Origin: Bilabrum cf. latius
Taxonomy: Eukaryota
NCBI GenBank assembly: GCA_965178125.1
Contig: OZ237757.1
Location: forward strand, 62,001-126,000
Length of the DNA stretch: 64,000 nt
Direction: 5' to 3'
Part shown: in pieces, positions 88-63,382 of the stretch
How the letters are laid out: each line of letters begins with the position of its first letter
How positions within the stretch are numbered: position 1 is the stretch's first letter
Translations under genes and position numbers: made by a program
The notes under the pieces: generated by a model
Seen by the model: only the letters and a program-made list of their open reading frames with translations
Told to the model about the DNA's origin: nothing
Database searches by the model: none

Positions 88-647
88 AGAAGGACGACAG
101 ACCGTTCGAATGCGAGGTCCACTATCTGGCATCGCCATTTGCGGTGTTTATGGCTATGACAGACCCCAGAGAGTAGGCTAGGGCCACGCGAGCTCCAGCT
201 AAGCTGGAACGTGGCGGCAAAGCCACGTGGCCTCCAGCCGCTGGCGACGAGTGGGAGATGGGTGGCGGTCAGATGTGTGGGGTTTACTAGACTGTAGAGC
301 TTATCTCTGATGATGACAAAGGAGAAGTTGCAGCAGGTCCTGTGAGCCGTGACGCAATTGATTCGTCTGGTGGAGTCAAATTTGAGCAAGCCTGGCGCAG
401 CAAGTTCTGGGCCGACGGAAAGTACGCCCGCTTGACCATTTCGTGCGCTGCGGTTCCTTCCAAACCGGGGGAGTGCGTGATGCGTGCTCGCTTCGAGCAC
501 GTGCCTGCGCGTGACAGGTACGACAACGACGCCTTCGCCCCGACGGTGGGCGCCTTCCAGCAGGGTTTCCTCAAGGGCATCCGGAATATAATCGGGTACG
601 GGGTCAGCAAGGAGAGGGTCATCGATGATGGCACGGGGGGCAAGTGA
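88..647 (+). CDS. Aha1/AHSA1-like (START/SRPBCC) C-terminal domain protein, 3' exon (5' part upstream)
   Basis: The frame is open from acceptor CCGCAG|88 to TGA 645-647 with in-frame TAG at 174 and 288. Translation FMAMTDPRE*ARATRAPA..EWEMGGGQMCGVY*TV..FEQAWRSKFWADGKYARLTI..HVPARDRY..KGIRNIIGYG resembles the Aha1 C-domain (QxWRxxxW, VP, FGYG). Confidence 0.6.
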
Positions 648-775
648 ACAGCGTGCTCGGAGCGGTTGCAGCGAGCGACTCTTGGTTGCGAAAATCCGCG
701 CGGAGCAAAGACAACATAAAAAGCACCGTGTCTAGCATGCACGCCACTCATTGGCATTACCACTCGTCACACTCA

Positions 776-58477: not shown

Positions 58478-61400
58478 TTAGAGGATCACCGACTGTACTG
58501 CGTGGACTAACCCATCATCCTTTGCCTCGGCACCATCCGCACCGCCACCAAGTGCCCGCCACGAGTGCTGCACCACCAGCTCGGCCCCGTCGCCCTCTGT
58601 GTCACCGCCGCCTGCAGCCCCCACTGGCAGCCCGATCAGGGCCCTCTCCAGCCCCTAGCCCTTCGCGCTGAGTACGTCCACTGCACCATCTGCGGTGAAA
58701 GCAGATTTGCTCGCGGCAGAGAGTCCCATGGTCGCCCCTATCATGACCCGCCCCGGCAGCACGCATCCCCTAGGAGGGGGAGCAGTTGCAGCAAAGGCCG
58801 CACGGGGCGCCCCCGCAGCGCGCACCACCGGAGTGGGCGTGTGCATGACGGCTCCGGCAAGAGGCGTATAACCATGAGCATGTCCAGGGGCGGCCTCCTT
58901 GGACCTGCCCTCCCTTCCCTCCTCGCCCTCTTTGCTCTCCGAGGTACCAGCACCCGCAGGCTCGGCTGCACTGTCGTGCGGTGCACCCGTAGAACCACGC
59001 TCATCTCGCACTTTGAGGCCCGCCCTCGACCGGACCCTACTTGTCACACCCCTCGCGGCCATCCCCACGACCGCGCCTGCCATGCCACCGGAAAGACCCA
59101 GCACTGCCAGCAACTCGCCAGGCCACGACACGCAGGCAGCACCGGCCTCGGCCAGCTGCCACGCCACCAGCGCCCTCCCAACCGCATGCCTCACCTGCTC
59201 CGATCTAGAGAGCCCCCTTTGGGCAGCCAGCATGCGCACCGCTGCAGGTGGCAGCAGGGCGGGGTGGAAAGAGGGCAGTACAACGAGGGGGGGCGCCGAC
59301 GCACTGGAGGAACTACTAGGCAGGCCCAGTGAGTGCATCGAATTGCAGTGTTCGGTTGACCCCCGCAGGTCCATCATCACCTACCGACCACACCACAACC
59401 TCCTGATGCAGCGCCCCTCGCCCTGGCCCTCGCCCGCACCAGCCCCTGCTCCAATGCCCTCCACCGTGGCAATCCACTTCCAGCTGGACACCGGACTGCG
59501 CTCAGCTCCGACCGCTCCCACAGCAGATCCTGCACTCATCACACTCGAGTCTCCCGCCATGCACGGCACCCCGATCCCCAGGGCCAGCACCTCCCGCAGC
59601 AGACCCAGGCGAAGACTCCTGCTCGTCGTCCACTGCGCACCGCCTGCCTTCGACTCCGTGCCACCGGCTGCCTCGGGCCCATCTTCAACGCGTTTTCCTT
59701 TACTTGGCTGTATGAGTGCCTCTATGGGTACCACCGCGGCAGGCAGCCTCCCTTCGTGCAGCACCGAGTACCCCAGTGCCCTGCTTGCCTGTGCCCTCGA
59801 CTCGAGCCATGTGCCCGCTTGCTTGAGCAGCGCATCGATGTCTGGGCTCGCACTGACCCCTGGGTCTGGTGCTGCTGCTGCTACTGCTGCTGCTTCCGAA
59901 GCATCAACAACGACAGGACCTGCAGACTCATTCCTGTCGTGTTCACTACCTTGCTGTAGCCTCCAGCAAGTGTCTCCCACGACTGCGATGGGGCCCTGCA
60001 AGCCGTCAAGCAAGCCTTGTGCCATCGAGGACGTATACTGCGGGGGCGTGGCTCCATCCGCCCTACCAGCTGCATCCAACATATCACCAGCGTGATCGCT
60101 CCAGCTCGGTTTCCAATCGGCTAAACCTCCACCACCGGAGCCTACCTTGAACCGGACACGATGCCCCTCGCCTAACCCTGACGGCTCACCGTATGAACCA
60201 AGCCAGCCTACTGACGGCACCACGCTCGCTACACCTTCCAGTTCCAGATAAAGGCTCCTGCCAGGGGCCAAAAGTCCCTATTGCCCCCCTTTCCCACAAT
60301 CTTGAGGTGCTTCTCTGCTCCTTGGCCCAGAGGCGGGCATTTTGATCACAACGGGCCCACCCCGAGGCCCAGAATGCGGACGAGCTTCGGCCTCAGCAAT
60401 GCAATCGTGCAATCCGTCATCGCAGAATGCCAGTAGCCGGGCACGCATGACCCCTGGTGCGCCGCTCCCAGCGCCAGAACCGCCCTGGGTCGGGCCTCTC
60501 CGCACCGGAAGGCCCCACAGGTGCACCTCCAGCCCTGATTCTGCAGACACGGACACGATGCGTGGATGTGCCAGCAGCGCGAAGACAGGGCCAGGCTTGC
60601 TGTCGCTGCCTTTGCACTGATCGGGGTGCGCAATCATTGGATCTGTCAGGTCTCGGTGGTCGATGGCTTCCATCCGCTGGTGCACCTGCTTGTCCTCTCG
60701 GTGGTCGATGGCTTCCATCCGCTGGTGCACCTGCTTGTCCTCCCTGTTGGAACCCTTGCCTGAGTCCACCGGCCCCGTCCGAGGGTCGATCAGCACGCGC
60801 AAACGACCCTATCTCTTCCCTTCAGGCCTGGATTGAGATCTATGTCCCATGTCCGGCTCGCTCTATTCAGTACCATCGCATGTCAGCTGGAGCAACACCT
60901 CCCCCGAGCCCGTGATGGTGGACTGTGCACGCCCTACATCCAGTGCACCCTCTTGTGGTGCATTCCCCCGTTTCCTGACCATGGTGACCCCGTCGATTGC
61001 ACTGCATTGCCGCGCCCACACCTCCAGATAGATATCCATCGGAGGTCCCAGCGCTGTTCCCTCGACCTCTGACTGCTCCTGCTTCGACACGGGTACGCAC
61101 ACGACACAGGCCGGCAAAGCGGACAGACCGGTGGACGCCCGCGCTGCTGCAACAGCGTCGGTCGCATCGCTGGCGCTAGTCCCTTCCCTCTCTGTGGGTT
61201 TGGACACCTGGCCAAAGCCGTCCTCATCCTAATCCTTATCATTGTCCTTGTCCTCAACCGCACCACCGTCGCTGCCATGCTCCCCGTCGTGGTGAAACTC
61301 TTTGCTCTCGCCTGTTCCGGCTCCTTTCCCTGCTTCTACTGCTCCTTTCCAATGCACCGCACCCTCCCGTGTCGGCCCATTCACGACGTCCTCAGCTGTG

Positions 61401-63382
61401 AGCCCCGGGTCCGGCACGGACAGCATCGAGCGGATGCGGGCACGAAGCGCAGGCGCTGTCTCTGCCGGAGGTAGCACGGCCCCGGCGTCTGCAGGCAGGG
61501 TAGGGGCAACGGCTCGATCCAGGGGCAGCCTGCCAGAGAGCAAGGGATGCTGCGGCCTCCAGGCCGATGGCAATAATGAACTGCTGTCCGTGGCTGCACT
61601 GGGCTGTCTCAGAGAGAGGACTGGCTCAATACCCAGTTGATCTGCCTCCGCCCCGTGCTCACCCCCCATCGTCCGTAGACGTTCCTCGCCCTAACCGACC
61701 AAGTCTCTGTCCAATTGCTTCAGCAAATCGGACACGACTTCTTCCACCTGCCCGGCCAGCGTCACGTGGCAGGCCAGCACAAAGGCGGGAGGCACGGGAT
61801 CTGCCCGCATGCACTGCACTGCACCGGCGGTACCTTCCACGTCCGTACACTCATAGGCCCCGCTTCCGGACTGCGCGAAGAGTCCACCAGTGGGCACAGG
61901 CACGCCTTGCCCGTGGCCTGCTGCATCTGCTGCAGCCGCAACCGCCGAGCTAGCCCCGGGTTCACCGTCTCTATCACCATCCTTCTGAGTTTGTCCGCCC
62001 CCCCCTCCATGACCCGCCGCCTGCATGGCAGCGGGGGCCCAGGGCGGCAGCTCGGCGTGTGCTGCGGCCCACTGCAGGGACATGCGCGCCCTGGCTGATT
62101 TCTCCACCTGGTTGCGGAACATGTCCGCGCGGCGCCTCAGGTCGGCATCGTGCGCTTGTGCCTGACTCTCAATTTCCCGCGCGTCAACCGATGCAGTCCC
62201 CCCGGCCTGTGCTTCCCTACTGCTGCCGTGCCCACCACTCCTCCCCTGTTGACCCCCCTCGGCGCTGAGCCACTGCCCCGCATCCACCTTTTCGTCGTGC
62301 CGTACTGCCTCAAGCAGGGTGAATAGAATACCGTTGTCTTGATCCGTGCCTGACTCCTGCTCCCTTGCAGACATCACACGGTCCCAGCATGGCCCGCACG
62401 GCTGCCAGTCCATCCCAGCACCAGCACCAGCACCAGCACCAGCAAGTGAACCAGCACCAGCACCAGCACCAGCACCAGCACCAGCACCAGCACCAGCACC
62501 AGCACCAGCACCAGCACCAGCACCAGCACCAGCATCAGCACCAGCACCAGCACCAGCACCAGTACCAGCACCAGCACCAGCACCAGCACCAGCCTTCCCA
62601 AGACTTTCCGCTCCCTCAGGCTCAGGCCTGTCGCTGCCTACAGATCCACTGTCATACAGCAGTTGATCATCTCCCCACGCACCCTCTAGCACCACCCCGC
62701 GGGCCCCTCTCTCCCGCCAGCCCGCGCTGCCACTCGCTGGTCCATGGTGATGACCCACGCTCGCCCGAAGGAGGGCCCGTCTGGCGGCGCGGAAAGGAGC
62801 TGTGCCCGCCCAGACGCTTCGATTTGCAAGGCGTTCCGAATCCCTACTGTGAACGGTACCAATAGCAACACGGAGGGCGATGCCGAGCACGGCAAACTCT
62901 GGCACCGGGAGAGCGAGCATCCGGTCCAGCAGGGCGAGGCGATTCTCGGGACAGTCCAGGCAGCTTTGCCGCATCATGTGCCGACGATGCATGACGGAAG
63001 AACCTGCCAGGACCCATGCCACCATCTTGGGTCCACCGAGTGCCTCAAGGCCTGTCTTGTTGCGCAGTTGCGACACACAAAGCGATGACTTTGCAGCGAG
63101 AGCATCTGCCAATGTATGCATGGTGCTCATGCCTTGAAACAAGAGCTATGTTGCGTGGGTAGAGCTGGCTTGCGCAGGGCAAACTACTGTTGCACACACG
63201 TCCTGCCAGCAAAGGCTAAGCTCCTTCCACCAATCTAAAATGTGACAGACGGTCTCCCTGGAGCAAAACGAGGGCGTATCATGACCAACACAGAATGGAT
63301 AGAAACATACGTCATTCATTGCCCAGGGAGCGTTTCGTACGCTCCACACAAAGGGAAAATATGGCCATCTCAACGAATCCAT
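58478..63382 (-). CDS. Large hypothetical protein, ~1630 aa
   Basis: Seven ORF-track pieces share one frame, separated only by TAG (63146, 61691, 61229, 60863, 60809, 60278, 59381, 58655). The first non-TAG stop is TAA 58478-58480. No domain recognised. Confidence 0.68.
60651..60740. repeat. 45-bp in-frame tandem duplication (EDKQVHQRMEAIDHR x2)
   Basis: Two adjacent identical copies. Confidence 0.92.
62415..62593. repeat. (CCAGCA)n hexamer repeat encoding a long Gly-Ala tract
   Basis: About 29 near-perfect copies. Confidence 0.93.

Follow-up and report, generated by a model that had tools for sequence, protein, structure and literature searches.

Evidence for a nuclear genetic code with UAG as a minor glutamine codon and UGA as the main stop in a GC-rich protist

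The 64,000-nucleotide stretch of DNA analysed here (the window) very probably comes from a nuclear genome in which UAG serves as a third codon for glutamine, a minor one with about 11% of Gln codons, with termination at UGA, the dominant stop, and at UAA. That TAG is a sense codon and that TAA and TGA are still stops is supported by frame statistics, by homology across the TAGs and by a spliced transcript contig. The original prediction had considered the code as possibly undescribed, but it is identical to NCBI table 15, reported for Iotanema and three ciliates. So, the code itself was already known, and it is the lineage carrying it that is probably new.

In-frame TAG codons and frame statistics

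Gene models were built by hand from 27 exon or ORF segments, corresponding to 22 genes and 15,116 codons. They contain 70 in-frame TAGs, spread over 19 of the 22 genes from position 174 to position 63146, which gives exact figures for the initial estimate of about 70 in some 20 unrelated genes. The tally omits at least one in-frame TAG (4712-4714), upstream of a modelled start and likely a splice acceptor. The TAG-bearing genes are the following (window coordinates):

3..647, plus strand: partial gene at the edge of the window; 2 TAGs; ends at TGA
776..3976, minus strand: RasGEF protein; 5 TAGs, upstream of the domain; ends at TGA
4754..6307, plus strand: charged protein, no Pfam match; 2 TAGs; ends at TGA
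6474..8650, minus strand: arylsulfatase A-like, several exons; TAG 6783, within Sulfatase_C; ends at TGA
8801..9676, minus strand: MESD-like chaperone, weak match (PDB 3ofg, E=1.5); TAGs 9287, 9224; ends at TGA
9786..10352, minus strand: final exon, gene with no Pfam match; 2 TAGs; ends at TGA
10438..14016, minus strand: RecQ helicase (DEAD, Helicase_C, 2 HRDC; Pfam, PDB); TAGs 13696, 13663, 11923, 10951; ends at TGA
14629..16251, plus strand: membrane protein; 1 TAG; ends at TGA
16495..18615, minus strand: ankyrin-repeat protein (Pfam); 1 TAG; ends at TGA
18821..23344, minus strand: CCT-domain protein (Pfam); 6 TAGs; TGA at homologue ends
23932..26155, plus strand: Dynamin_N-family GTPase, two exons; TAGs 23998, 24154, 24286, 26069; ends at TAA
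26294..27790, minus strand: pectinacetylesterase/Notum-like, several exons; TAG 27626, within the PAE domain; ends at TAA
28722..34201, plus strand: TmcB-like membrane protein (Pfam TPR_TmcB), two modelled segments; 17 TAGs; ends at TGA
34812..35989, minus strand: multi-copy gene, GT..AG intron 35644-35798 spliced in runs X5 and X6; 2 TAGs; ends at TGA
49756..51498, minus strand: ankyrin-repeat protein (Pfam, PDB); 4 TAGs, three in LxxAC*NGH repeats; ends at TGA
51863..55003, minus strand: EF-hand-like protein, below the Pfam cut-off; 6 TAGs; ends at TGA
55115..56257, minus strand: ADP-ribosylglycohydrolase (ARH); one TAG, 55154, 13 codons before the end
56736..58310, minus strand: renalase-like oxidoreductase (PDB 3qj4, aa 24-504 across the TAG); TAG at codon 96 of 524; ends at TGA
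58478..63382, minus strand: ORF of 1,634 codons, no Pfam match; 8 TAGs; ends at TAA

Homology alignments run through TAGs in the RecQ DEAD and HRDC domains, in Sulfatase_C, PAE and Dynamin_N, and in the ankyrin and renalase proteins. The GTPase gene has a 172-nt GT..AG intron (24415-24586), and the family alignment spans both its exons. The MESD-like protein had no Pfam match, a word search found no homologue of it, and its single-sequence structure model was unusable (pLDDT 45.7). The membrane protein at 14629..16251 had presumptively been labelled dolichol kinase, a label that neither Pfam nor PDB confirmed. Ten ORFs of the 36-45 kb region gave no convincing Pfam match.

The 648 glutamine-type codons of the 22 gene models were 494 CAG, 84 CAA and 70 TAG (10.8%), in a genome of 63% GC and a GC3 of about 77%. 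GC3 correlated negatively with the share of TAG (rho -0.56) and with that of CAA (rho -0.67; n=24). With expectations derived from off-frame rates, TAG was not purged from the modelled frames (70 observed versus 78.5 expected), while TAA and TGA were absent from them (0 versus 28 and 0 versus 231, respectively). Six frames of 1,046-1,634 codons were devoid of TAA and TGA, with a chance of 5e-13 to 1e-8 each (off-frame rates, single-frame, uncorrected). It is this frame length that constitutes the non-circular evidence, since the frames were extended to the first TAA or TGA and the tally of 21 modelled ends (18 TGA, 3 TAA) is thus partly circular; it agrees with the earlier claim that the read-through proteins end at TGA or TAA, in part by construction. 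A blind test of coding continuation across stops proved powerless, with 9/42 for TAG, 7/38 for TGA and 10/46 for the CAA control.

The UAR=Gln code of NCBI table 6 (ciliates, hexamitids, oxymonads, ulvophytes, aphelids), which has UAG=Gln in common with table 15, was ruled out. The longest frame measured 733 aa with the standard code, remained at 733 aa when TAA was freed, and reached 1,717 aa when TAG was freed. Besides lacking TAA in coding frames, where 28 were expected, the window differs from table 6 in having three modelled genes that end at TAA.

DNA and transcript evidence

Contigs from the short DNA reads of runs X1 and X2 showed 0 differences from the window over 19877-29021 and 30232-34997, and pieces of X1 contigs spanned all 31 TAGs checked in the stretch compared; both runs come from a single sample, from which the assembly itself may have been made, and hence are not independent of it. 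Runs X5 and X6, from a second study, showed the same letters as the window. They were taken as RNA from their spliced joints and uneven cover; no run is recorded as RNA, and X5 is marked as probably DNA. One contig of X6 joins position 24414 to position 24587 over the GT..AG intron of the GTPase gene and conserves three TAGs unchanged, with 0 differences. The retention of TAG in mature mRNA, which had been set out as a check, is thus borne out by this one contig, in consensus letters. An X5 contig of 4,766 nt covers 16 TAGs of the TmcB-like gene, but it was left out of the mRNA evidence because it runs through an intergenic stretch.

As the spliced contig keeps its three TAGs, assembly error, hidden introns and editing are all disfavoured. 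Under a standard code, the TAGs could be lost after transcription by U-to-C editing or as the ends of small in-frame introns. TAG is a valid acceptor, and the one at 4712-4714 looks like a true case; partial editing would also be compatible with contigs, which drop minor variants. However, besides the intact TAGs of the spliced contig, the alignments are colinear and free of insertions at both RecQ 13696 and GTPase 24286, and the pyrimidine content upstream of TAG (0.436) is like that upstream of CAG (0.434) and unlike that of two real acceptors (0.72 and 0.67). A-to-I editing would yield Trp instead of Gln. Removal of the TAGs from the transcripts seems, on this evidence, highly improbable.

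Still less probable, and largely refuted, is that the genes are pseudogenes, that C-to-T hypermutation of the RIP kind created the TAGs, or that they are errors of the assembly. It is true that CAG to TAG is a C-to-T change, and that X1 and X2 lend little independence if they are the source sample. Nevertheless, the 84 CAA and 89 CGA codons gave no TAA or TGA, no frameshift occurred in any frame above 1,000 codons, the letters recur in X5 and X6 of the second study, and the RIP indices (TpA/ApT 0.53, (CpA+TpG)/(ApC+GpT) 1.43) carried no RIP signature by the usual thresholds.

The residue encoded by UAG and the place of termination

[quoted passage not shown] RecQ TAG 13696 lies in a column with Q in 120/120 homologues and also in both PDB RecQ alignments shown. 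GTPase TAG 24286 corresponds to Q in the metagenome orthologue P0241, inside a block with 81/86 identical residues. In the TmcB-like gene, a 30-nt (10-codon) tandem duplication pairs TAG 32957 with CAA, two bases different. MESD-like TAG 9224 is opposite Q in PDB 3ofg, in the weak match of E=1.5, where TAG 9287 is opposite R. These comparisons, at few sites, support the decoding of UAG as glutamine. So, the initial statement that the residue is Gln where it can be judged holds for the two decisive and two supporting sites, and elsewhere the sites were uninformative.

Decoding as Glu or Lys, which are one base away (GAG, AAG), or mixed decoding by near-cognate tRNAs, would fit a few other sites: RecQ TAG 11923, in HRDC, is in a column with E in 78 and D in 19 of 120 homologues, GTPase TAG 24154 corresponds to K in P0241, and the renalase TAG is opposite K. 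Gln neighbours were also infrequent around TAG (4/140, versus 11/168 for CAA and 77/987 for CAG), but the CAA control gave no Gln signal either. Against these points stand the invariant RecQ column, the Q of the near-identical P0241 block and the tandem copy that sets TAG against CAA. In addition, a context classifier whose top choice was E at GAA and K at AAA placed E sixth and K beyond the top six for TAG; for Q it was powerless, as Q ranked only 12th even at CAA. Altogether, Glu, Lys or mixed decoding appears very unlikely. The other sites gave T opposite the arylsulfatase TAG, a gap opposite that of Notum, and an insert relative to homologues at RecQ 13663. The ankyrin TAG columns were variable in flank-matched alignments (Q 8/33, 8/56, and not within the top five of 62); in a context-matched motif Q reached 5/9, yet it was not dominant in pairwise alignments.

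With UAG read as Gln within genes, it might also act, depending on context, as a stop near the poly(A) tail. The gene ends were set by the first TAA or TGA, so that any TAG ends would go unseen; the end of the PDB homologue of ARH fits either TAG 55154, the one TAG site that may itself be a stop, or the TGA; and TAG was scarce within 100 codons of the stop (4/64, versus 72/465 for CAG). CAA was likewise scarce near ends (8/78), however, and the codons past the last TAG of ARH, the GTPase and gene g22 remained G/C-ending and coding-like. Moreover, the CCT gene, the one end compared with many homologues, closes at a TGA that coincides with the C-termini of metagenome homologues L001-L019, a comparison that covers TGA ends. 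Such a double role of UAG is considered unlikely, though less so than the other alternatives.

Known UAG codes, placement and significance

According to two papers (PMC5304391, PMC11687900), UAG alone is reassigned to Gln in Iotanema spirale, Hartmannula sinica, Trochilia petrani and Protocruzia tuzeti; the original prediction had correctly listed Iotanema and phyllopharyngean ciliates and had omitted Protocruzia. Panek et al. (2017, PMC5304391) describe Iotanema, an anaerobic fornicate, as having the same UAG=Gln with UAA and UGA as stops. UAG is a minor codon in both, with about 8% of Gln codons in Iotanema and 10.8% in the window, but the primary stop is UAA in Iotanema and TGA here (18 of 21 modelled ends), in a GC-rich genome (63%). 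In the three ciliates, according to McGowan et al. (2024, PMC11687900), internal UAG occurs in 78-84% of genes (19/22 here), UAG makes up 18.5-31.8% of Gln codons (10.8% here), and UAA about 90% of stops, whereas TGA is dominant here. The nuclear genome of Cafeteria roenbergensis, with about 70% GC and few introns (1.67-1.89 per gene), resembles the window in style only, and what is available of that paper mentions a non-standard code for the mitochondrion only, UGA=Trp (PMC6972860).

The named GTPase-family matches listed included no Cafeteria protein. The 63% GC content and the introns of 155 and 172 nt seem unlike those of typical ciliates. In a GTPase tree of 60 sequences (matches of 380-580 aa from 150 listed, plus P0241), the window protein and P0241, 80% identical to it and taken as the orthologue of a close relative, formed a long unplaced branch with a support of 0.19. 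No locus for P0241 was found in viral contigs, nor for P0391 in metagenome contigs. A metagenome search with the CCT protein gave 22 loci of 46-70% identity, on contigs that carry no taxonomy and 0 of them syntenic with the window; Rfam detected no 18S in the window, and exact look-up of six standard-code window ORFs in the collection searched gave 0/6. The literature searched held no report of UAG=Gln in a stramenopile or bicosoecid; subscription papers and supplements (PhyloFisher PMC8345874, PMC11687900) could list more. It is slightly more likely than not that UAG-only Gln arose independently here, neither in a ciliate nor in a fornicate but in a GC-rich heterotrophic stramenopile-like protist with UGA as main stop.

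Mechanistically, UAG would be read by a tRNA-Gln with anticodon CUA, which could not pair with UAA and might most simply have derived from tRNA-Gln(CUG) by a one-base mutation, while recognition of UAG by eRF1 would have been lost or weakened. In a GC-rich genome with UGA as the main stop, UAG may have been easily freed, after which CAG to TAG changes could have accumulated near-neutrally. The tRNA-Gln(CUA) is predicted rather than seen both here, where ARAGORN found no tRNA and Rfam no match in the 64,000-nt window, and in Iotanema, for which Panek et al. predicted this mechanism (PMC5304391).

Annotation with the standard code would cut short about 19 of the 22 genes, so that such a genome looks fragmented or is overlooked in metagenome surveys. 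UAA and UAG nearly always change meaning jointly, and how eRF1 and tRNAs distinguish both codons is best tested in the rare instances where the two are decoupled. As the reported UAG=Gln cases have UAA as main stop, the dominance of UGA in this GC-rich genome provides a counterpart against which codon-capture and ambiguous-intermediate models can be weighed. Two studies have yielded DNA and apparent RNA runs of the organism, which, together with a near metagenome relative, make tRNA-Gln(CUA), eRF1 and the timing of the change directly examinable; given the close relative represented by P0241, the change would be datable and its tRNA and eRF1 basis comparable. If the placement is true, the literature searched would hold no earlier report of a stop-to-sense reassignment in the nuclear code of a stramenopile.

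Coding frames and stop codons in the window

The window is eukaryotic nuclear DNA with a GC content of 63%, tightly packed genes and few introns. Gene modelling was manual and drew on ORF lists, codon scoring and Pfam matches; it gave 27 segments in 22 genes, including:

8801..9676 (-), MESD-like gene
10438..14016 (-), RecQ gene
18821..23344 (-), CCT gene
23932..26155 (+), GTPase gene
28722..34201 (+), TmcB-like gene
49756..51498 (-), ankyrin gene
55115..56257 (-), ADP-ribosylglycohydrolase (ARH) gene
56736..58310 (-), renalase-like gene

The 15,116 modelled codons contained 70 TAG, 84 CAA and 494 CAG. 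The many in-frame TAGs that the original prediction had placed across unrelated genes were thus found, with at least one TAG in 19 of the 22 genes; no TAG was present in GH10 or in those parts of the second sulfatase that were modelled. Compared to off-frame expectation, TAG occurred at about the expected rate (70 versus 78.5), while TAA (0 versus 28) and TGA (0 versus 231) were absent from the interior of the frames, an absence built into the models. Frame lengths are independent of that construction: six frames of 1,046–1,634 codons ran without TAA or TGA (chance p from 5e-13 to 1e-8, single-frame, uncorrected), and the longest frame increased from 733 to 1,717 codons with TAG freed and stayed at 733 with TAA freed. 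TAG is demonstrably tolerated in coding frames, and TAA and TGA act as stops. The predicted ending of read-through frames at TGA or TAA agrees with the 21 modelled ends (18 TGA, 3 TAA), to which frames were extended by construction. The label of dolichol kinase given to one gene found no Pfam or PDB support.

The TGA of the CCT gene coincides with the ends of metagenome homologues, one of which (L005) terminates at the same point with TAG, indicating that TAG is used as a standard stop elsewhere. The ARH TAG lies 13 codons before the gene end and is followed by coding-like codons; UAG might also serve as terminator at such a site.

Concerning other contents of the window, two sulfatases, a PAE/Notum-like hydrolase and GH10 lie within 6474-8650, 26294-27790 and 45073-49590, a set that would be compatible with a phagotroph lifestyle. 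Region 36000-45000 has few genes, tandem arrays of 24, 39 and 111 nt and several near-identical recurring blocks, with no convincing Pfam match among 10 ORFs searched. At 49678-49810 an array of three 44-nt units (98% matches) overlaps the ankyrin gene stop at 49756. Doubled contig depth in DNA run X1 over 29150-34997 (22.6–25.4 versus 11.6 upstream) suggests a duplicated or collapsed segment. The multi-copy gene 34812-35989, with no convincing Pfam family, has further copies about 87–90% identical in DNA runs, and summed contig depth over 34716-36000 was about 1,000 in X5, a run of a second study; its copies could reveal TAG/CAG exchange.

Sequence error, introns and editing

Contigs from X1 and X2, DNA runs of one sample that is maybe the source of the assembly, showed no differences from the window over 19877-29021 and 30232-34997 (region compared, 18700-36000). 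Two GT..AG introns were delimited: 24415-24586 (172 nt), absent from a contig of X6, and 35644-35798 (minus strand, 155 nt), absent from X5 and X6 contigs. In the 1,183-nt X6 contig, from the separate study, pieces 23911-24414 and 24587-25265 abut exactly; lacking the intron, it is taken as a spliced transcript, although no run is recorded as RNA. TAGs 23998, 24154 and 24286 are unchanged in it, so that TAG is kept in spliced RNA, as the prediction required of mature mRNA, in this single consensus contig. After splicing, the GTPase reading frame spans 683 codons, contains four TAGs and closes with TAA, and both its exons align with the family.

The pyrimidine fraction upstream of TAGs was 0.436, not enriched, versus 0.72 and 0.67 at real acceptors. 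The in-frame TAG at 4712-4714 (+), preceded by a pyrimidine-rich stretch, resembles a genuine 3′ splice acceptor; manual counts upstream of real starts may therefore include intronic TAGs. A signature of RIP-like mutation was absent at the thresholds applied.

The amino acid at UAG

TAGs lie within aligned domains, with homology resuming beyond them, in RecQ, renalase, arylsulfatase, PAE/Notum, ankyrin and the Dynamin_N GTPase; the renalase-like alignment spans aa 24-504, with TAG at codon 96. The prediction of Gln wherever the residue can be judged held at four sites; the others speak against it or are uninformative. Two sites are decisive for Gln. The column of RecQ TAG 13696 is Q in 120/120 homologues, retrieved with TAG=Q in the query and aligned with TAG as X. 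TAG 24286 of the GTPase is opposite Q in the metagenome-derived orthologue P0241, retrieved with TAG=X and identical at 81/86 positions. Two more sites lend support. The TmcB-like gene carries a 30-nt tandem duplication with TAG in one copy and CAA, two bases apart, in the other, codons synonymous only if TAG is Gln; and MESD-like TAG 9224 is opposite Q in 3ofg (weak match, E=1.5). On the other hand, the RecQ HRDC site had E in 78 and D in 19 of 120 homologues, TAG 24154, bordering a conserved block, is opposite K in P0241, and renalase K, arylsulfatase A T and a Notum gap face other TAGs; ankyrin columns are variable. Gln neighbours were rarer beside TAG than beside CAA or CAG, and context and continuation tests on TAG were powerless to discriminate. 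TAG share declines as GC3 rises, as does CAA share, which fits a minor synonymous codon. Altogether, the nuclear code change is real, and we consider Gln very likely to be the meaning of UAG.

Mechanism, organism and known cases

A tRNA-Gln(CUA) derived from tRNA-Gln(CUG) would read UAG and not UAA, and eRF1 would ignore UAG; the 64-kb window, which gave no tRNA or Rfam matches, holds neither gene. PMC5304391 argues likewise for Iotanema.

In the GTPase tree the window gene is on a long branch with P0241 as sole companion. In the P0241/P0391 relative, the predicted ORF ends three residues past the point matching the window intron donor, which suggests that the position of this intron is conserved. 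Logan, ENA and JGI contain contigs of P0241/P0391 that reach 10.8 kb. Named protein matches are scattered across eukaryotes, with no Cafeteria among them. The organism may be a stramenopile or bicosoecid, judging from the CCT motif style, which we take to be of that kind, and from Cafeteria-like GC and introns. The likeness in GC content and intron density refers to PMC6972860. That stramenopile placement and independent origin of the code both hold seems somewhat probable to us.

Passages of the openly available literature searched (including PMC8345874, PMC11412368, PMC13768787, PMC13192750, PMC10120064 and PMC6492006) held no stramenopile with UAG=Gln. As predicted, the code had been reported in few lineages: according to PMC11687900 and PMC5304391, it is NCBI table 15, known from Iotanema spirale and the ciliates Hartmannula sinica, Trochilia petrani and Protocruzia tuzeti. 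The main stop there is UAA in Iotanema and the two phyllopharyngeans (Hartmannula, Trochilia), whereas it is TGA in the window organism. The code is thus a known one, and the lineage that carries it is probably new.
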